A DNA stretch of 49,897 nt, taken from sequence record OK272489.1; one strand, written 5' to 3'. The notes beneath the pieces are model-generated. The model ran no database searches. It saw only the letters and a list, made by a program, of their open reading frames with translations, and was not told the origin of the DNA. Shown here piece after piece: positions 6,809-47,546 of this stretch; within the stretch, counting starts at the first letter, position 1; each line of letters opens with the position of its first letter. A program made the position numbers and the translations under genes. Source of the stretch: Escherichia phage JLBYU19.

Positions 6809-6878
6809 TTTAATTTTTTTACCATGTGCGTTTATCATGCGGTCAATATATTGACTTTAATTAATATGGAGAATAAAA

Positions 6879-22539: not shown

Positions 22540-23067
22540 ATGGCTAAAAACGTTGAGCCTGCTGTAAAGGCATTAAATTTCAAAGAGTTATACAATAAAA
22601 CTTATGGCGATATTGTTACGCTAAACAACCGCCACAAGTACACGCCGGAACAGGTTTTTGATATGGCGATCCGCTATTTCACTTGGGCCGAAGAGAATCA
22701 CATCCAGGCGGCTGAAACTGCTTCCTTTCAGGGTGACGTGTACGAGAGCAGAGTTTACAAGCCTCGCGTTTTCACGGTTAACGGATTCAGCTTGTATCTC
22801 GGCGTGACTGAGGCTGCCGTAAGCAAATGGCGTAAAGAGCCTGGATTCTGCGATGTGATGGAGTTTGTTGATAAAGTAATTTACGAGCAAAAATTCCAGC
22901 TTGCGGCAAATAACATGATTAATGCTGGATTTATCGGTAAAGAGATCGGCGTAGAGAAGCCAGCAACAGTGAGCGTTGAAGCTAGCGCGGCAGCTAATGC
23001 AAGCATTGACGCAGTAACTGCCGATGAGGTGAAAGAGGCTGTTATTGATATTCTGGAGCAACTTTAA
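22540..23067 (+). CDS. terminase small subunit
   Basis: 175 aa from ATG 22540 (AAGGAGG RBS); immediately upstream of and overlapping large terminase gene. Confidence 0.55.
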   Translation: MAKNVEPAVKALNFKELYNKTYGDIVTLNNRHKYTPEQVFDMAIRYFTWAEENHIQAAETASFQGDVYESRVYKPRVFTVNGFSLYLGVTEAAVSKWRKEPGFCDVMEFVDKVIYEQKFQLAANNMINAGFIGKEIGVEKPATVSVEASAAANASIDAVTADEVKEAVIDILEQL

Positions 23068-24635
23068 TGATCATATGGGAAGATTTGACGGCGGCGCAAA
23101 AGCGAGCCATTAAAGAAATCAGTGAGCATTCATTCGAAAAGATGATCAGAATCTGGTTTCAGTTATTGCAGGGGCAAAAATTCCAGAGCAACTGGCATTT
23201 TAGCTTATTGTGCAGTGAGGTAGAGAAGATCATCAATGGAGAGTCGCAGAATGTGATTTTCAACATTACGCCAGGTAGCGGTAAGACTGAGATTTTCTCG
23301 ATCCACATGTCACCCTACGCGTCATTGAAAAGTCGGAAGGTGAGAAACCTTAACCTTTCGTTTAGTGATGGACTTGTCCAGCAAAACAGCAACAGGATAA
23401 AGGAGATTATCGGTTCTCCTGAGTGGCAAGAGCTATGGCCAGGAAAACTGGCAAAGGCGAGCGCAAAAGATCTCATAGTTACGGATGGCGGCAAGGTTAA
23501 ATTGCAAGTTAACTCACGTTCTATTGGCGGACAGGTAACAGGTTTGCGTGGCGGCTATATGGACGATGGTTTTACTGGTATGCTGGTTCTGGACGATCCA
23601 GACAAGCCGGATGATATGCTTTCTAAGGTCAAGCGTGAGGCGATCCACATGCGGTTAAAAAACACAGTGCGATCGCGTCGAATGAAAGACACTACGCCGA
23701 TTGTTATGGTGCAACAGCGACTACACGTTAATGATTCCACCTGGTTCATGCTTAATGGCGGAATGGGTGGTATTGAGTTTAAAGTCGTGAGCATTCCGGC
23801 GCTGGTTACGAAAGAATACCGCGAATCGCTTCCTGATTGGTTGAAGCCTGAATTTGATCGTGATGTGCTGTCAAGTAAGCCAGTGATGATAGATGGCGTT
23901 GCTCATTATTCATTTTGGCCTGCGAAGGAAAGCGCGGAGGAGTTGCTTGCATTGCGCAATGCAGATCCTTACACGTTCTCCAGCCAATACCAACAGCAAC
24001 CAATCGCGCTGGGCGGGAACGTGTTTAAAACAGAGTGGTTCCAGTATTACGGCAGCGGCGAAAAATGCGCACTTCCTAAACCGGATCGCTTTGAATACAC
24101 ATTTATTACTGGAGATACCGCGCAGAAGGCCGGAGAGCTTAACGACTATTCTGTTTTTTGTTATTGGGGGATGTATAAGAATCGCGTTTACTTCATTGAT
24201 GGCATTCGCGGAAAGTGGGAAGCGCCGGATCTTGAATTAAATTTTATTGCCTTCGTTAATCAGTGCTGGAAGCGCAATAAGGAGTGTGGCAGCTTGCGAC
24301 GTATCCACATTGAGGATAAGGCCAGCGGCACTGGTTTGATTCAGGGGGCCAAAAAGAAGATCCCGATTGATATAAATCCCGTTCAGCGAAGCAACGACAA
24401 GGTAACGAGAGCAATGGACGCCGCGCCAGTAATGAGGGCCGGACGTGTGGCACTGCCAGAAAATCACCCAATGCTGCCTGAGATACTGGCAGAGGTTGCA
24501 GCATTCACTTTTGATGATTCTCATCCCCATGATGATATTGTCGATAATATAGTTGATGCTGTTAACGTCGAAATGAACTTGGCAGATGATCCGGTGGCAA
24601 GGATGAAAAAGCTGGCTGGTCTACGCAATAAATAG
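23067..24635 (+). CDS. terminase large subunit
   Basis: 522 aa; Walker A-like NITPGSGKT; position and size. Confidence 0.8.
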   Translation: MIIWEDLTAAQKRAIKEISEHSFEKMIRIWFQLLQGQKFQSNWHFSLLCSEVEKIINGESQNVIFNITPGSGKTEIFSIHMSPYASLKSRKVRNLNLSFSDGLVQQNSNRIKEIIGSPEWQELWPGKLAKASAKDLIVTDGGKVKLQVNSRSIGGQVTGLRGGYMDDGFTGMLVLDDPDKPDDMLSKVKREAIHMRLKNTVRSRRMKDTTPIVMVQQRLHVNDSTWFMLNGGMGGIEFKVVSIPALVTKEYRESLPDWLKPEFDRDVLSSKPVMIDGVAHYSFWPAKESAEELLALRNADPYTFSSQYQQQPIALGGNVFKTEWFQYYGSGEKCALPKPDRFEYTFITGDTAQKAGELNDYSVFCYWGMYKNRVYFIDGIRGKWEAPDLELNFIAFVNQCWKRNKECGSLRRIHIEDKASGTGLIQGAKKKIPIDINPVQRSNDKVTRAMDAAPVMRAGRVALPENHPMLPEILAEVAAFTFDDSHPHDDIVDNIVDAVNVEMNLADDPVARMKKLAGLRNK

Positions 24636-24650
24636 CACTAATTGCTAAAA
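24631..24650 (+). promoter_or_regulatory. conserved junction element (variant AATAGCACTAATTGCTAAAA)
   Basis: atypical: TATAAT only 5 nt downstream (24656-24661), then a terminator hairpin before portal gene. Confidence 0.4.
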
Positions 24651-24664
24651 AGTTATATAATCAA

Positions 24665-24690
24665 GGCTGGATTTTTCCAGCCTTTTTTAT
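24665..24690 (+). terminator. intrinsic terminator between terminase and portal genes
   Basis: GGCTGGA-ttttt-CCAGCC hairpin + T6. Confidence 0.6.
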
Positions 24691-24705
24691 TATGGAGATT
24701 TGACG

Positions 24706-25998
24706 ATGAGTGAAAAAACAAGGCTAGTTAAGGCCGATGGATACAACGAGATTTTCAAGGGCAGCAAGGGCAATGGGCGTGTGGAGTTGCCTTTCTTTAT
24801 GCAAGGGTTCGAATACACCACGCACGCTGATTTTTACATTCGCGACGGCCTAGCAAAACGAATCATCGACGTTGTTCCAGAAGAAATGGTGACGCCTGGA
24901 TTTAATATTGACGGCGTGGAAGACGAGGAAAGTTTTAGATCTTTGTGGGATGAGAAGAGACTAAACGATAAAATCATTGATGCGCTTTGCTGGTCGCGTC
25001 TTTTTGGTGGCGCTGCAATCGTAGCAATCGTCCAGGATGGCAGGTCGTTAAAGTCACCTGTAGCGCCTGGTGCAATCCTTGAAGATGTTCGCGTTTACGA
25101 TCGCTTTCAGGTTAGGGTAGAAAAGCGCGAAACTAATCCACGCAAGGTAAGATATGGTGAGCCATTAATTTACACCATTTCACCTGGTGCCGACTTGCCA
25201 GAATACCAGGTTCACTATTCGCGAGTCTGTATTATCGACGGTGAGCGGCTACCAAATCAGCGGCGTCAATCAAATGATGGGTGGGGTGAGTCGATCCTGA
25301 ATAAGAGACTTGTTGAGGCTATTTGTGATTATAACTACTGCGAAAACTTAGCAACTCAATTGTTGCGACGTAAGCAACAGGCGGTATGGAAAGTTAAAGG
25401 TCTTGCTGATCTTTGTGATGATGATGATGGTGTTAGTGCCGCACGTTTGCGACTTGCTCAAGTTGATGATGAGGGTGGCGTAGGCCGTGCGATCGGCATT
25501 GATGCGGAAGATGAGGAATATGATGTTTTAAATTCTGATATTTCTGCCGTCGATTCGTTCTTGGAAAAGAAGATGGATCGCATTGTATCTCTTTCCGGCA
25601 TCCATGAAATCATCCTCAAAAACAAGAACGTTGGCGGTGTTAGCGCGAGCCAAAACACGGCGCTTGAAACCTTCTCCAAGCTGATCGACAGAAAGCGAAA
25701 GGAAGAATACAAACCAATCCTTGAATTTCTGATCCCGTTCCTGATTCAAGAGGAAGAATGGAGTATTCAGTTTGCGCCGTTAAGCGTTCCCAGCGAAAAG
25801 GACCAGGCCGAGATCTTGAACAAGAACATTGATTCTTTGAGCAAGGCTATTGACGGTCAATTCATGGATACAGAGGAGGCGCGCGACACATTGCGAGCCA
25901 TTGCGCCTAACGTTAAACTAAAAGACGGCAATAACATTAAATTACCTGAGCAGGACGTAGAGCCGGAGCCAGGAACAACCGAGGGTAGCAATCAATGA
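24706..25998 (+). CDS. portal protein
   Basis: 430 aa from ATG 24706 (GGAG RBS); follows terminase. Confidence 0.6.
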   Translation: MSEKTRLVKADGYNEIFKGSKGNGRVELPFFMQGFEYTTHADFYIRDGLAKRIIDVVPEEMVTPGFNIDGVEDEESFRSLWDEKRLNDKIIDALCWSRLFGGAAIVAIVQDGRSLKSPVAPGAILEDVRVYDRFQVRVEKRETNPRKVRYGEPLIYTISPGADLPEYQVHYSRVCIIDGERLPNQRRQSNDGWGESILNKRLVEAICDYNYCENLATQLLRRKQQAVWKVKGLADLCDDDDGVSAARLRLAQVDDEGGVGRAIGIDAEDEEYDVLNSDISAVDSFLEKKMDRIVSLSGIHEIILKNKNVGGVSASQNTALETFSKLIDRKRKEEYKPILEFLIPFLIQEEEWSIQFAPLSVPSEKDQAEILNKNIDSLSKAIDGQFMDTEEARDTLRAIAPNVKLKDGNNIKLPEQDVEPEPGTTEGSNQ

Positions 25999-26750
25999 TA
26001 GTGAAAGGCGTCGTTAAACAATGGCGCTTTCCTGAAGCAAGCGAGCGGCAATTGCGCCGCTCAATTCAGGAGGCGATAAGGGATCTTGTTGTGCTGATGC
26101 GCAGCAAAACAAAGGAAATGAAATTTGACGCGGACACCGAAGAAATCAACGCCGCAGAGGATGAGATTAGTAGCTTCGCGTTAAAGCTAATAGCTGGCAT
26201 CGCCGCATCACTTCCGGCTATCGGTCTTGCTGTTTATAAATTCAACTCGAAGCAATTTATTAACGTAGCCAAATCAACGGGAGGCAAGTCAAATTCAGCC
26301 GTTATCATCCTTATGGCTATTGGGGCCAATGCGAATGAGAGTTGGTATAGGACGCTATACGGTCAATGGCATGACATGACGATCGCATCTCTTCAAAAGC
26401 TATTTGGAAACATCGTGTCTGACTGGTCAACCAATATTAGATTGGCAAACTTTCGCGGAATGAGAGATAGCCAGGTTAATGAATTGGCTGGTAAGAGGTT
26501 CGCAGTGTATAGCTCTTGGGGTAAGACAAGGGCGGAAAACATCATAGGCGCTTGGAATAGTAGACTCATGCGCCAGCGTCTTTATGATTCAAAAGTAACT
26601 CATTATTTTTGGCATGGTATGCTTGATGACAGAGAGCGATTGCAGCATGTACAATGGGAAGGTAAGCGCATTGCGCTAGATTCTGAACATGATTTTCCTG
26701 GTGAGCCTTTCGGTTGTCGTTGTTGGGCCATACCAGATTGGAACAGTTAA
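25995..26750 (+). CDS. head morphogenesis / minor head protein
   Basis: 251 aa; start overlaps portal stop; position between portal and scaffold. Confidence 0.45.
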   Translation: MIVKGVVKQWRFPEASERQLRRSIQEAIRDLVVLMRSKTKEMKFDADTEEINAAEDEISSFALKLIAGIAASLPAIGLAVYKFNSKQFINVAKSTGGKSNSAVIILMAIGANANESWYRTLYGQWHDMTIASLQKLFGNIVSDWSTNIRLANFRGMRDSQVNELAGKRFAVYSSWGKTRAENIIGAWNSRLMRQRLYDSKVTHYFWHGMLDDRERLQHVQWEGKRIALDSEHDFPGEPFGCRCWAIPDWNS

Positions 26751-26760
26751 GAGGTATTAA

Positions 26761-27876
26761 ATGAAGGCAAAACAAAGATTTGATAGCGCCAAAGTAAAGG
26801 CGCACTTTGATGATAACGGGTTTTTAGTTGATCGCCCTATCGTGGCGCGAATTGGTTTACAAGTCTATCAGACTCCTTTCGGTGAGCGCCGAGAATTTCG
26901 CCCTGCGTCAGAAGTATTCAAGGCCGACTCGCTCGCCACCTTTGCAGGGAAGCCGGTCACGGTTGGTCACGTCACGGTAACGCCAGAAAATGCCGAAAAG
27001 GTTGTGGTTGGTTCTTGTGCTGGCGCTGGTGTGCCTAACGGGATCGGCGTAGAGGTTCCGTTAAGCATTTACTCAAAACGAGCAATCGAAAGCGCAAAGA
27101 AGCGAGACACGGCGGAAATTTCAGTTGGTTATACATCGGTTGATATTGATAAACCAGGCTGGGGCAATAATAAAACTGGTGAGTACGTTTTCGATGAGGA
27201 CGTTAGCGAAGACTGGAAACCTGATTCTCCTGATTGGGTTAAGTTTGATGCAATCCAGACTGAAATCAAGGTAAACCACATCGCGTTAGTTTTCCGAGGT
27301 CGAGCTGGCATTGCAAAATTAAACCTTGATAGCCAGCAAGATTTTCCGTATAGTGACGACGTTATTAACAACAAAGAGGATCAAATCATGACTGTAAAAA
27401 TTAAACTGGATGGCGCTGTAGAGTTTGACGTGCCGAAAGCGGTTGCGGATCACATTGAATCACTGAAAGCTGATACCAAAGCGCAGAAAGAAAAGGCTGA
27501 CAGCCTAGAAGCTGAGCGAGACGCACTGCAAACCAAAGTAGATGGCATTCAGGATCAGATTGATGCCGCAGTCAAGAAGGCCAAAGAAGATGCCGAGCAA
27601 TATGCTCAATTAGTGGCAGACGCTAAAGAGTTAGGCATCAAGTGCGACGGCCTGGATGCGAAAGCAATCAAGGTTGCATACATCAAGGAAGTTATGGGCA
27701 ATGACGTTTCTGATAAAACTGATGCCTATATCGAAACAGCTTTCGACATCGCCAAAAACTCTGATAAAATGGCGGCGCAGCGTAAGAGCATTAAAGGTGA
27801 CTCTTTCGCGAATGAAAAGCAGGATGACGCAGGTTCTAAGCTGAATCCTAACGCTCGTTTTGAGAAACTGAAATAA
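26761..27876 (+). CDS. capsid scaffolding protein (possibly with N-terminal protease-like domain)
   Basis: 371 aa; C-terminal half is a charged coiled coil (KADSLEAERDALQTKVDGIQDQIDAAVKKAKED). Confidence 0.5.
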   Translation: MKAKQRFDSAKVKAHFDDNGFLVDRPIVARIGLQVYQTPFGERREFRPASEVFKADSLATFAGKPVTVGHVTVTPENAEKVVVGSCAGAGVPNGIGVEVPLSIYSKRAIESAKKRDTAEISVGYTSVDIDKPGWGNNKTGEYVFDEDVSEDWKPDSPDWVKFDAIQTEIKVNHIALVFRGRAGIAKLNLDSQQDFPYSDDVINNKEDQIMTVKIKLDGAVEFDVPKAVADHIESLKADTKAQKEKADSLEAERDALQTKVDGIQDQIDAAVKKAKEDAEQYAQLVADAKELGIKCDGLDAKAIKVAYIKEVMGNDVSDKTDAYIETAFDIAKNSDKMAAQRKSIKGDSFANEKQDDAGSKLNPNARFEKLK

Positions 27877-27888
27877 GGAGTAATTAAA

Positions 27889-28398
27889 ATGGCTAAAATT
27901 GGAGCAAGTTATTTTGACACTATGGCGCGTGCGCTTCCTGGTCAGGTATCCGACACGTCAGCATATAACATCGACGGCGCTTGCGTTCTTGACAAGGAAG
28001 ACGGCATCCCAATCCTGGTTGGCGTGGCTGTTAAGCTAAAAGGCGTTGACTCAATGGGTAACAAGCTGATCGACTCCATTTCCGCTGGAGGTGATGTTCC
28101 TTATGGCGTTGGCATCCGCTCTCACTTTCAAACCACGGCTGATAATGGTCGAATGGTTTATGAGGTTGGCGGCGGAATCAACGTTATGACAGAGGGCCGC
28201 GTTTGGATGATTGTCGATGATTCAGATAAGGCCAAAAAGCCATCGTATCGCGAGCCTGTAAAAATTGATGAAAACACTGGCAAGGTGAAAAGTGGTGGCG
28301 CTATCAATACCAACTGGATTTACACGGGAGATAAAACCACATTTGGAACTGGCGAAGATGTGTTGACTTTGTTTGAAGTTCAGGTTTTCCCAAGCTAA
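27889..28398 (+). CDS. capsid decoration/cement-like protein (paralog 1)
   Basis: 169 aa; AGGAG RBS; motifs YNIDG, GRVW, WIYTGD shared with next ORF; followed by terminator. Confidence 0.45.
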   Translation: MAKIGASYFDTMARALPGQVSDTSAYNIDGACVLDKEDGIPILVGVAVKLKGVDSMGNKLIDSISAGGDVPYGVGIRSHFQTTADNGRMVYEVGGGINVMTEGRVWMIVDDSDKAKKPSYREPVKIDENTGKVKSGGAINTNWIYTGDKTTFGTGEDVLTLFEVQVFPS

Positions 28399-28403
28399 AA
28401 TTA

Positions 28404-28432
28404 AGGCGCTCGCTTGAGCGCCTTTTTTATTA
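28404..28432 (+). terminator. intrinsic terminator after decoration-like paralog 1
   Basis: AGGCGCTCG-cttg-AGCGCCT hairpin + T6. Confidence 0.6.
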
Positions 28433-28448
28433 TGTAAGGAGAAATGAA

Positions 28449-29006
28449 ATGGCTAAAGATTATTCATCTGTTATGGGTCTTTCTTGCCCTGGTTGTTTGG
28501 TTGACTCTACTCGCTACAATATTGATGGAACTGGCGTTTGTGGTTCTGAGTCGATTATTGCTGGTAAGGTTGTTTTCTTCAAAGAGAGAGTAGAAGGTTA
28601 TAGCATATTTGTTGATCATAAAGAGCATGATGCGGTTGTTGCTGGCGTCGCGCTAAGGAGCAACATAACAACGACAGTTAACGAGGAAGACGGGTATTCA
28701 GACTACAAGGAAGGAGACGCCATCAACATTTTGACAAGAGGTGTTGTATGGTGTGTAACTCAAACAATTGAATCTCCTCCTGAACATGGCGATCTTGTTT
28801 ATGTTAACAATGATGGCTTTGTAGCAAAGAGTGACGGGGATGAAATCGTCGATGGCTGGATTTTTACTGGTGACTTCTACAAGTTTGATGAAACAATAAA
28901 CATAGTAGGAGTAAGGATAACGCCGCTTCATCATAGAAAATACCTTCTTACTGGTGCGATAATTGAGGCTGAAAATGGCTACATAGAGGGGAACAGAGAC
29001 GATTAA
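28449..29006 (+). CDS. capsid decoration/cement-like protein (paralog 2)
   Basis: 185 aa; AGGAG RBS; motifs YNIDG, RGVVW, WIFTGD. Confidence 0.45.
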   Translation: MAKDYSSVMGLSCPGCLVDSTRYNIDGTGVCGSESIIAGKVVFFKERVEGYSIFVDHKEHDAVVAGVALRSNITTTVNEEDGYSDYKEGDAINILTRGVVWCVTQTIESPPEHGDLVYVNNDGFVAKSDGDEIVDGWIFTGDFYKFDETINIVGVRITPLHHRKYLLTGAIIEAENGYIEGNRDD

Positions 29007-29232
29007 TAACGTTCAATTAAAGGTAACGGTTGTTCCTACTTGGGCTGATGACAAAACGGGTCAGTGGACAATTACAAACGAGCAAGATCCAAAGGTTGCC
29101 AGCGTTAGCCGTACAGGTCTTGTTGTTCCTACTGGTGTAGGAGGCAGAGTTAACGTCAACTGGACTGCTAATGATGGTTCTGGAGTTGCTGACCAGTTTG
29201 ATATTGTATTTAAGAAAACCGCTGGCGAATAA
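28987..29232 (+). CDS. Ig-like (Big_2-type) domain segment lacking its own start codon (+1 frame)
   Basis: 81-codon open frame overlapping the last 18 nt of 28449..29006; reads VQLKVTVVPTW...KVASVSRTGLVVPTGVGGRVNVNWTANDGSGVADQFDIVF; no start codon before the domain. Confidence 0.45.
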   Translation, partial: RGTETINNVQLKVTVVPTWADDKTGQWTITNEQDPKVASVSRTGLVVPTGVGGRVNVNWTANDGSGVADQFDIVFKKTAGE

Positions 29233-29257
29233 CTGATAGCATAAAAAAACATTGCAC

Positions 29258-29276
29258 GTTTAACAAAAAGTGCTAT
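29258..29276 (-). promoter_or_regulatory. conserved junction element, oriented away from adjacent capsid gene
   Basis: plus strand reads GTTTAACAAAAAGTGCTAT; flanked by inverted repeat TGATAGCA (29234) / TGCTATCA (29271). Confidence 0.45.
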
Positions 29277-29282
29277 CATCTA

Positions 29283-29308
29283 GGCCGTTACATTTAACGG
29301 CCTTTTTT
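29283..29308 (+). terminator. intrinsic terminator immediately upstream of major capsid gene
   Basis: GGCCGTT-acattt-AACGGCC hairpin + T6, directly followed by GGAGG RBS. Confidence 0.6.
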
Positions 29309-29322
29309 ATGGAGGAAGCAAA

Positions 29323-30294
29323 ATGGCTAAAAAATACGATGAATTAGATGCTACCATTGTAGCAAATCATTTACAGGTTCAGGGCGTTAAGGGTGATGCT
29401 TCTGATATGGGTATTTGGACCGCTCAAGAGCTACACAAGATCCGTTCAACGGCATACGAGAAAGAGTATCCGGCAGGTTCCGCACTTCGCGTATTCCCTG
29501 TAACAAACGAGCTTTCTGATACTGATAAGACTTTTGAGTATCAGACTTTTGATAAGGTTGGCTACGCGAAAATTATCGCCGACTACACCGACGATCTGCC
29601 GACCGTGGACGCGCTGATGACTTCTGAATTTGGCAAGGTGTTCCGCCTGGGTAACGCTTTTCTGATCTCCATTGATGAGATTAAAGCGGGTCAGCGAACT
29701 GGCAAGAGCCTGTCAACTCGCAAGGCTAACGCTGCGCAAAATGCGCATGATCAGTTGATTAACTTCCTGGTGTTCAAAGGTTCCAAGCCTCATAAGATCG
29801 TTTCCGTTTTCGATCACCCTAACCTTACGAAAATTGTTTCTAAAGGATGGATGAGCCAGGATGGAAACACCAAGTTCCCTGATGTGGCAAGCGATGAACT
29901 GGAGGCTGCAATCGAGACTATCGAGGAAGTAACCAAAGGTCAGCACCGCGCGACTAACATCCTGATCCCGCCGTCCATGCGTAAAGTCTTGACGGTTCGA
30001 ATGGAAAATACCACTGAAAGTTATCTTGAATACTTCCAGAAGCAAAACGGCGGCATCACTATCGACTCTATCGCAGAGCTTGAGGATATTGACGGCAAAG
30101 GTACGAAAGGTTGCTTGGTTTACGAAAAAGATCCAATGAACATGAGCATTGAGATTCCAGAAGCGTTTAACATGCTTCCGGCGCAGCCAAAAGACCTTCA
30201 TTTCAAGGTTCCTTGCACTTCCAAGTGTACTGGCCTTACTATTTACCGTCCGTTTACGATGGTGCTTATTACTGGCTTGAAAAAGTCAACTTAA
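29323..30294 (+). CDS. major capsid protein
   Basis: 323 aa; GGAGG RBS; flanked on both sides by intrinsic terminators (own unit); position in head module. Confidence 0.6.
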   Translation: MAKKYDELDATIVANHLQVQGVKGDASDMGIWTAQELHKIRSTAYEKEYPAGSALRVFPVTNELSDTDKTFEYQTFDKVGYAKIIADYTDDLPTVDALMTSEFGKVFRLGNAFLISIDEIKAGQRTGKSLSTRKANAAQNAHDQLINFLVFKGSKPHKIVSVFDHPNLTKIVSKGWMSQDGNTKFPDVASDELEAAIETIEEVTKGQHRATNILIPPSMRKVLTVRMENTTESYLEYFQKQNGGITIDSIAELEDIDGKGTKGCLVYEKDPMNMSIEIPEAFNMLPAQPKDLHFKVPCTSKCTGLTIYRPFTMVLITGLKKST

Positions 30295-30305
30295 TTAGAT
30301 AACAT

Positions 30306-30337
30306 GGGGAGCCTTAAGGGTTCCCCTTTTTTTATTT
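30306..30337 (+). terminator. intrinsic terminator after major capsid gene
   Basis: GGGGAGCC-ttaag-GGTTCCCC hairpin + T7. Confidence 0.65.
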
Positions 30338-30351
30338 ACGGAGTACACAAA

Positions 30352-30618
30352 ATGAGCAAAACTTTAAAACTTAAAGTAACTGGCGTTTGCATGATTATTA
30401 TGGACGGTAAGCGTTATCACCCTGGTGATGAGATTGAAATTGAATCTGATCGCATTAATGATTCCGCAATTGAATACCTGATCGCTCGCGGCGATGTGGA
30501 AGTTAAAGACAATTCCGAAATTAACGAGCAAATCAAGGAGAAAGCGGAGAAGAAGCGCAAAAAAGATCCTACCGAGGGCAAGAGCCGCAAAGAGCTAGAG
30601 GATGGCGGCGAATATTAA
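30352..30618 (+). CDS. hypothetical structural-module protein
   Basis: 88 aa from ATG 30352 (GGAG RBS). Confidence 0.4.
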
Positions 30619-46783: not shown

Positions 46784-46810
46784 AGCCCCGCATATGCGGG
46801 GCTTTTTTTA
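46784..46810. terminator. bidirectional terminator between ssb and leftward fiber cluster
   Basis: AGCCCCGC-atat-GCGGGGCT hairpin flanked by A5 and T7. Confidence 0.7.
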
Positions 46811-47314
46811 TTCTAACGTGGTTGGTTTGTTTACCAGTGCCGCTACAACCGCTTTTAGCTCGTCAATTTCTTTTCTCATCTCATCGTTTTCCGCTTTCAG
46901 TTTCTTAACGTGGTGAATCAGTGGAACAGTGAGGCGGTCATACATAACGCCTTCCGCCACCATGCCATTACTTGAAGCAATGGCAGGATCTTCTCCTTCT
47001 TGCAGCGGTCGCCAGTGAACGTACTCCGGCGCAATTTCTCCAACCTCTTCCGCGATTAGCCCGTACCATCCCCAATCTTTACGGTCGCTTTCACAAGTTG
47101 ACCGATACCAAACAGGACGCATTTCAAGCATCAGATCCGCATATTCATCAATAACCGATTCTACGCTGCTCTTATAACGAGAAGAGGAAGTGGAGCGTAA
47201 AACTTGCGACACTCCAGCATTTGGATCAAGCCATAAGTTTGCTGATTGAGCGGTTGTGTTAAGATTAAATAAATAAAATGCATCGTTACCAGTTAGGGGG
47301 GTAAAAACTCCCAC
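46808..47314 (-). CDS. tail-fiber C-terminal chaperone-like domain protein (peptidase S74-like)
   Basis: 168 aa from GTG 47314; SSRYKSSVESV ... DWGWYGLIAEEVGEIAPEYV resembles auto-processing chaperone domain of tail fibers. Confidence 0.45.
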   Translation of the reverse strand: MGVFTPLTGNDAFYLFNLNTTAQSANLWLDPNAGVSQVLRSTSSSRYKSSVESVIDEYADLMLEMRPVWYRSTCESDRKDWGWYGLIAEEVGEIAPEYVHWRPLQEGEDPAIASSNGMVAEGVMYDRLTVPLIHHVKKLKAENDEMRKEIDELKAVVAALVNKPTTLE

Positions 47315-47546
47315 TATACCTTCCGCTACCCAACTCGGATGATAGATCAGTTTGTTTTAGATACAGCTTCAACTTATTGTCAACATCAGTAGTTGATGCT
47401 TTTCCTGCGACATCCTGTTTTAGTGTCGAAACATCACTTTTCAGCTTCGTTATATCACCAGGAATAGTAGCAACATCCTGTTTTAGTGTTGAAACGTCAT
47501 TTTTCAGCTTCGTTATATCACTAGGTATAACAGTGACTGTAGCCAT
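47286..47546 (-). CDS. tail fiber-like coiled-coil repeat protein (possible upstream part of split fiber gene)
   Basis: 86 aa; two 21-aa repeats DITKLKxDVSTLKQDVA; overlaps next ORF by 29 nt in another frame. Confidence 0.45.
   Translation of the reverse strand: MATVTVIPSDITKLKNDVSTLKQDVATIPGDITKLKSDVSTLKQDVAGKASTTDVDNKLKLYLKQTDLSSELGSGRYSGSFYPPNW
47411..47526. repeat. tandem direct repeat, 2 x 63 bp
   Basis: CATCCTGTTTTAGTGTCGAAACATCACTTTTCAGCTTCGTTATATCACCAGG repeated with few substitutions 63 bp apart; encodes 21-aa repeat. Confidence 0.6.

Follow-up and report, generated by a model that had tools for sequence, protein, structure and literature searches.

Two adjacent open reading frames in the window, by which we mean the whole 49,897-nt stretch of Escherichia phage JLBYU19 DNA (OK272489.1), encode a pair of capsid cement proteins of the phage T1 type. 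We put a probability of about 0.88 on the reading that ORF1 (27889..28398) is the Warwickvirus orthologue of T1 gp49, and that ORF2 (28449..29006) together with a downstream segment in the +1 frame is the orthologue of T1 gp48, both within a T1-like capsid architecture. In the window the second gene is interrupted by a single additional G, which separates its cement domain from a C-terminal Ig-like domain. Coordinates are those of the window, and all features lie on the + strand unless stated otherwise.

DNA similarity placed the window in the family Drexlerviridae, subfamily Tempevirinae, genus Warwickvirus, among the T1-like phages. Across 26700..30400 it was 99.4% identical to Shigella phage JK16, while over its whole length it was a mosaic at 94-99% identity to that phage, so the window is not JK16 itself. 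Phage orkinos was also rejected as its identity, its cement gene being divergent (41% coverage). The two ORFs sit in a standard siphophage head module that runs on the + strand from terminase to major capsid gene (23067..30294). It comprises the large terminase (23067..24635), the portal (24700..25998, Phage_portal_3), a Mu-F-like head morphogenesis protein (25995..26750), a prohead protease with a C-terminal coiled-coil, scaffold-like region (26761..27876), the two ORFs, and a major capsid protein of the HK97 fold family (29323..30294; Pfam Major_capside PF09950, E=3.4e-53; PHROG 264 'major head protein', E=4e-99), which is the binding partner of the cement proteins. The initial annotation had described the gene upstream of the pair as a scaffold gene. 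Its coiled-coil tail is indeed scaffold-like, and the T1 homologue is annotated as 'capsid and scaffold protein', but a plain scaffold it is not: the product matched the DUF2213 prohead protease family (Pfam, E=7.4e-25) and PHROG 530 'head maturation protease' (E=6.7e-109).

Both ORFs were found at the coordinates first assigned to them, and they aligned with each other almost from end to end (29% identity across about 170 residues by BLASTP, E=2e-13). The alignment was significant against shuffled controls: its Smith-Waterman score was 144 (z=19.4), whereas 2000 shuffled versions of ORF2 averaged 33.2 ± 5.7 and scored 64 at most, so that none reached the observed value. The motifs YNIDG, G.VW and WI[YF]TGD, which the initial annotation had used to pair the two genes, were present in ORF1/ORF2. 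Each gene has its own ribosome-binding site, AAGGAG, at 27875..27880 for ORF1 (8 nt before the ATG) and at 28436..28441 for ORF2 (7 nt before the ATG). Judged from their alignment, ORF1 and ORF2 are true, diverged paralogues. Neither exact product, of ORF1 or of ORF2, is on record.

ORF1 encodes a protein of 169 aa, which we take as the main capsid cement protein. It matched Pfam PF22758 Phage_cement (E217 gp24 / Pam3 gp6) with E=2.9e-24 and 86.3 bits, and PF23982 XM1_gp53_minor_capsid with 54.8 bits, each against a gathering cut-off of 27. Among solved structures, its residues 1-153 matched PDB 9kmg_a, 'Decoration protein | cement protein II' (158 aa), with E=2.5e-36, and the PDB matches as a whole were to T1 gp49 in 9KMG, 9KMH and 9KZJ. 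Pairwise alignment gave 49% identity to T1 gp49, and the JK16 counterpart, gp60, was 99.4% identical.

ORF2 as read encodes 185 aa, consisting of the full cement domain and a linker followed by NRDD, four residues read out of frame, and a stop codon. It also passed both family thresholds, with 80.7 bits for PF22758 Phage_cement (E=1.5e-22, cut-off 27; the full-length JK16 homologue scored 78.9 bits) and 72.8 bits for PF23982 XM1_gp53_minor_capsid (cut-off 27). Residues 1-181 were 100% identical to JK16 gp61 by tblastn. The full-length JK16 homologue matched PDB 9kzj_H, 'BIG2 domain-containing protein' (T1 gp48, 255 aa), with E=1.4e-15 over residues 10-245, the Big_2 part included, and the second paralogue was about 29% identical to T1 gp48 by tblastn. 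The cement domain of the ORF2 type matched T1 gp48 (1.4e-15) and gp49 (2e-15) nearly equally, so that its orthology to gp48 rests on gene order and on the Big_2 domain. As far as sequence can tell, the matches to the solved T1 chains settle the cement family, and the proposal that the pair are decoration or cement proteins was thus borne out by the two Pfam families and by the T1 gp49 and gp48 structures. The β-tulip fold is likewise expected here, from the 49% identity of ORF1 and the HMM-level homology to solved chains.

The initial annotation regarded duplicated capsid accessory proteins as uncommon, which does not hold for this phage family. Homologues of ORF1 were found in 833 phage records by tblastn, mostly in T1-like phages of Klebsiella, Escherichia, Shigella, Salmonella and Citrobacter; the second paralogue often appeared as an additional match within the same record, and the pair reaches as far as T1. 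Duplication is the rule within the T1-like family (Drexlerviridae) and not a rarity. Among close relatives, JK16 carries near-identical genes (gp60/gp61, NC_049814), and the pair is also found in FritzSarasin, tunus and tuinn, among others. Public labels for these cement genes are widely wrong or say nothing of their role, and include 'HtjA' (JK16 gp60), 'putative zonula occludens toxin' (JLBYU, tonn), 'putative scaffolding protein' and 'hypothetical protein'; the label 'capsid decoration protein' for the first gene was seen only in the BASEL records (FritzSarasin, IsaakIselin). As a separate observation, about 20 records named 'Campylobacter phage' (Campylobacter jejuni), for example MG065687 (A136), MG065667 and MG065649, contain T1-like head genes closely related to those of E. 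coli Drexlerviridae, with a match to residues 1-161 of the second protein, its cement-domain part, at 40-42% identity, which suggests mislabelled hosts or contaminant phages.

The role of the two proteins can be modelled on the T1 head, which was solved by cryo-EM in 2025 and is a T=7 capsid of 415 gp47, 80 gp49 homotrimers and 60 gp48:gp49 (1:2) heterotrimers (Chen et al., Viruses 2025, PMC11945409, which cites PDB 9KZJ). In that structure the cement domains of gp48 and gp49 are both β-tulips, the trimeric cement sits at threefold and quasi-threefold sites and stabilises the capsomer junctions, and the N-terminus of gp49 is embedded in the inner capsid surface. Residues 154-255 of gp48, which are Ig-like, form a weak and flexible protrusion on the outside, and the authors suggest that it aids adsorption (PMC11945409). 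By homology with T1, the ORF1 protein would form 80 homotrimers and supply two subunits to each of 60 heterotrimers, the third subunit of which would be the ORF2 protein, giving copy numbers of about 360 for the ORF1 protein, 60 for the ORF2 protein and 415 for the major capsid protein. The cement trimers would clamp adjoining capsomers, with the gp49-type N-terminal arm extending to the inner capsid surface. In the T1 figure legend two heterotrimers are counted among the six trimers around a hexon (PMC11945409). Two per hexon and 60 in all point to the penton-adjacent class and not to the other 60, hexon-only sites, which would give three per hexon; the heterotrimers here are thus probably located at penton-adjacent quasi-threefold sites, as judged from the T1 counts.

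The initial annotation had suggested that the duplicated genes could give either alternative or combined surface decoration. The combined part agrees with T1, where the heterotrimers hold both paralogues (PMC11945409). The alternative part, with one or the other protein used per particle or condition and no co-assembly, could in principle draw on the separate ribosome-binding sites and the intervening terminator, which might permit separate regulation. Both proteins occur in the same T1 capsid and even in the same trimer (PMC11945409), however, and the pair is kept together across Drexlerviridae, so that we consider this reading very unlikely.

In the ancestral form, the 260-aa product of the second gene would project its Big_2 domain flexibly from the capsid, where it may contribute to weak surface adhesion; what the Ig-like domain does is a matter of speculation, even for T1. 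The family-typical second gene is 783 nt long and encodes 260 aa, with a cement domain and a C-terminal Big_2 Ig-like domain. Reading the gene directly in JK16 and FritzSarasin showed a single 783-nt ORF of 260 aa in both. In the window this reading frame is broken. Alignment with JK16 and FritzSarasin located the break at a GGGG run (28988..28991) that has one G more than in every close relative, the window reading GAGGGGAAC where JK16 and FritzSarasin read GAGGGAAC (GGG to GGGG). The full-length relatives, about 30 in number and all matching the 882-nt query, span 881 nt compared with 882 in the window, and the extra G is the sole difference between JK16 and the window across these 882 nt (99.9% identity). 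As a result, ORF2 ends as GYIEG-NRDD-stop, with the stop codon at 29004..29006 and the C-terminal peptide ...AENGYIEGNRDD, whereas a full-length or trans-frame product would read ...GYIEGTETINNVQLK. The 3' boundary at 29006 given in the initial annotation is thus a result of the extra G, and the gene sequence extends to 29232.

The rest of the gp48-like gene lies in the +1 frame at 28987..29232 and retains 81 intact codons and a TAA stop. The translated segment (28987..29229, stop at 29230..29232) matched Pfam Big_2 PF02368 with E=1.9e-7 and 31.3 bits (cut-off 22.8) and was 98.8% identical to residues 180-260 of JK16 gp61. No ATG, GTG or TTG start was found within its 81 codons, and it is absent from the ORF list of the window. 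We rejected it as an independent small gene on the grounds that it has no start codon and is fused in frame in the relatives; a -1 frameshift at the site was rejected as well, since that frame meets a stop almost at once. The window thus lacks an in-frame C-terminal Big_2 domain on its second paralogue, which is present in about 30 relatives. The break falls in the linker beyond the cement domain, past the region that matches the T1 gp48 β-tulip (residues 2-153). Searches for the local sequence showed neither the GGGG nor the GGG form in IMG/VR viral contigs, no match in GTDB genome contigs, and no GGGG form in the phage collection; the one match among metagenome contigs, from human gut, carries GGG.

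A gp48-type protein read from the window as written would be 185 aa long, with its whole cement domain kept and no Ig domain. Such a phage should be viable, because in tonn (MN850596), which belongs to the same genus, the second paralogue is by nature 144 aa long and has no Ig domain. In tonn the tandem pair (tonn_85/tonn_84) lies upstream of the major capsid gene with a hairpin between the two genes, and the major capsid gene begins 83 nt after the second. The truncated product predicted from the window has its natural equivalent in the second paralogue of tonn, and the C-terminal Ig-like domain is accordingly optional in the family.

The sequence by itself does not discriminate between a real mutation and a sequencing error, and two readings of the extra G have to be weighed. 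We give roughly an even chance to a genuine recent mutation, by which the phage would carry an Ig-less gp48-type cement protein and would have lost 60 Ig-like domains from the capsid surface, a loss that would be tolerated if the domain is dispensable in laboratory propagation. Single-base frameshifts are known to abolish accessory virion structures in laboratory phages, for example stf in lambda PaPa. The position of the break in the linker, past a complete cement domain, means that heterotrimer assembly should survive, and the short second paralogue of tonn, with no room for an Ig domain, offers a natural precedent. We put at somewhat below even odds the rival reading that the G entered the homopolymer through an error of sequencing or assembly, in which case the real gene encodes the cement-Big_2 protein of 260 aa and the 185-aa ORF2 is artefactual. 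Such an error would fit an insertion within a G-run that is the sole difference from JK16 across 882 nt, with 81 downstream codons undamaged, free of stops and 98.8% identical to JK16; it would also fit the occurrence of GGGG in no other record and the lack of any record of the truncated product. The same facts weigh against a genuine mutation, since an orphaned Big_2 segment without any decay implies a very recent event and GGGG is unique among about 30 relatives.

The remainder of the window bears on both readings. A second ORF-breaking +1 G was found in a G-run at 47296..47301, which by itself favours error. Against error, 76 of the 83 JK16 proteins queried were matched in the window and only two of the 76, gp61 and gp82, were frame-split, both of them plausibly dispensable virion accessories, while random errors would mostly strike essential genes; the confinement of frame-splits to two accessory genes is what a genuine mutation would lead one to expect. 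Three further homopolymers differ from JK16 by a single base, at 6814 (T7 vs T6), 30348 (A4 vs A5) and 36752 (T3 vs T4), and all of them lie between genes, a pattern that looks filtered by selection and not like noise. Moreover, the second frameshift recurs in the independently sequenced phage orkinos (MN850586), whose gene is likewise split at G6 and annotated as two CDS, and this again supports mutation over error. That frameshift (G6 vs G5 in about 38 other relatives) falls in the homologue of JK16 gp82, a 224-aa protein labelled 'chaperone of endosialidase' / tail fibre domain protein, and leaves two ORFs on the - strand, one of 86 aa (47286..47546) and one of 168 aa (46808..47314). The run at 47296..47301, in a fibre-associated gene, could mark recurrent slippage, or the same artefact could have arisen repeatedly in sequencing.

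A further reading takes GGGG as a site of programmed or leaky +1 ribosomal frameshifting, at which most of the protein made would be short and Ig-less and a smaller share full-length with its Ig domain. Programmed frameshifts append Ig-like domains in some other phages, such as Listeria phage PSA and phage A118. In the window the Big_2 frame is indeed +1 to ORF2, open from 28987 and without a start of its own, and re-pairing of tRNA-Gly from GGG to GGA appears sterically possible. The two parts are nevertheless fused in one frame in about 30 relatives, in T1 and in the metagenome contig, so the shift site is not conserved; a programmed +1 shift of the PSA type would be expected to show a frame arrangement and shift site shared among relatives and no in-frame fusion. 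In addition, the A-site codon AAC is common, being neither rare nor a stop, no stimulator was recognised, and four G are too short for appreciable slippage; we therefore regard this reading as extremely unlikely. If it were true, the leaky site would be a newly arisen means of setting how many Ig-like domains the capsid carries. In a weaker version, slippage at this G-run and at 47296..47301 would turn accessory virion adhesins of T1-like phages on and off.

The terminator that the initial annotation placed between the two cement genes was recovered by a terminator scan at 28403..28430. It is an intrinsic-terminator-like hairpin, AAGGCGCUC-GCUU-GAGCGCCUU, followed by U6, with a GC-rich stem of 9 bp in the 50-nt spacer; its folding energy was -16.5 kcal/mol (z=-3.7), and 0 of 200 shuffles folded as well. 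A hairpin and U-run occur at the same intergenic position in T1 and tonn with different stem sequences. This hairpin probably affects dosage, in that it may lower expression of the second gene towards the 6:1 (360:60) stoichiometry. It would also reduce the transcription that reads on into the major capsid gene, whose expression is high, unless a putative promoter at 29252..29279 is real. That promoter-like element, read from the sequence, consists of TTGCAC, a 16-nt spacer and TG-n-TATCAT (extended -10). It is weak by consensus, and its -35 matches at 3 of 6 positions, which is why the consensus scan did not list it; the T1 counterpart, TTGACG...TATTAT, lies in the same place.

The scan also found a second hairpin with a U-run at 29282..29309, between the gp48-like gene and the major capsid gene (-15.7 kcal/mol, z=-4.4), and an equivalent hairpin and U-run are present in T1. 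The hairpin comes immediately after the promoter-like element, and together (29252..29309) they shortly precede the ribosome-binding site from which the major capsid gene is translated. By this arrangement upstream transcripts could be terminated and transcription of the capsid gene re-initiated. A transcript from the putative promoter would start inside the 5' arm of the hairpin. Directly after the major capsid gene we observed a third hairpin with U7 at 30306..30333 (-18 kcal/mol, z=-4.5), which overlaps the first listed ATG of a DUF7444 ORF (30304..30618); in JK16 the DUF7444 gene is annotated from a later ATG, at about window position 30352.

For annotation, both genes should be named as capsid cement proteins, of the T1 gp49 and gp48 types. 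Users of the genome should be aware that the second gene either contains a sequencing error or belongs to a phage that lacks the Ig domain by nature, and a natural variant, if true, could be compared with JK16 to test the role of the capsid Ig-like domain. The understanding of capsid decoration as such is unchanged by the pair.

The closest known system is T1, which shares the gene order of protease/scaffold, short cement gene (158 aa), long cement-Big_2 gene (255 aa) and major capsid gene (MN153797). In T1, as in the close relatives of the window, the second protein consists of a cement domain of about 155 aa, a linker and Big_2. The two phages differ in that T1 belongs to Tunavirus (Tunavirinae) and the window to Warwickvirus (Tempevirinae), and in that Big_2 is in frame in T1 and out of frame here. 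More distantly, Pseudomonas phage E217 gp24, cyanophage Pam3 gp6 and phage TW1 provide single-gene decoration proteins of the same Pfam families. Vibrio phage XM1 likewise has one decoration protein, gp53, which forms homotrimers, whereas the T1-like phages have a duplicated gene and place 2:1 heterotrimers at a subset of sites. The principle of β-tulip trimeric cement is shared by T1 with lambda gpD and the herpesvirus triplex (PMC11945409). The triplex, built of Tri1 and two Tri2, is also a 1:2 heterotrimer, which is an analogy of mechanism and not family membership; no sequence relationship to lambda gpD or the triplex was detected here. The paired cement genes therefore belong to an already characterised T1-type system, in which the one-base frameshift, possibly an artefact, is the only local peculiarity.
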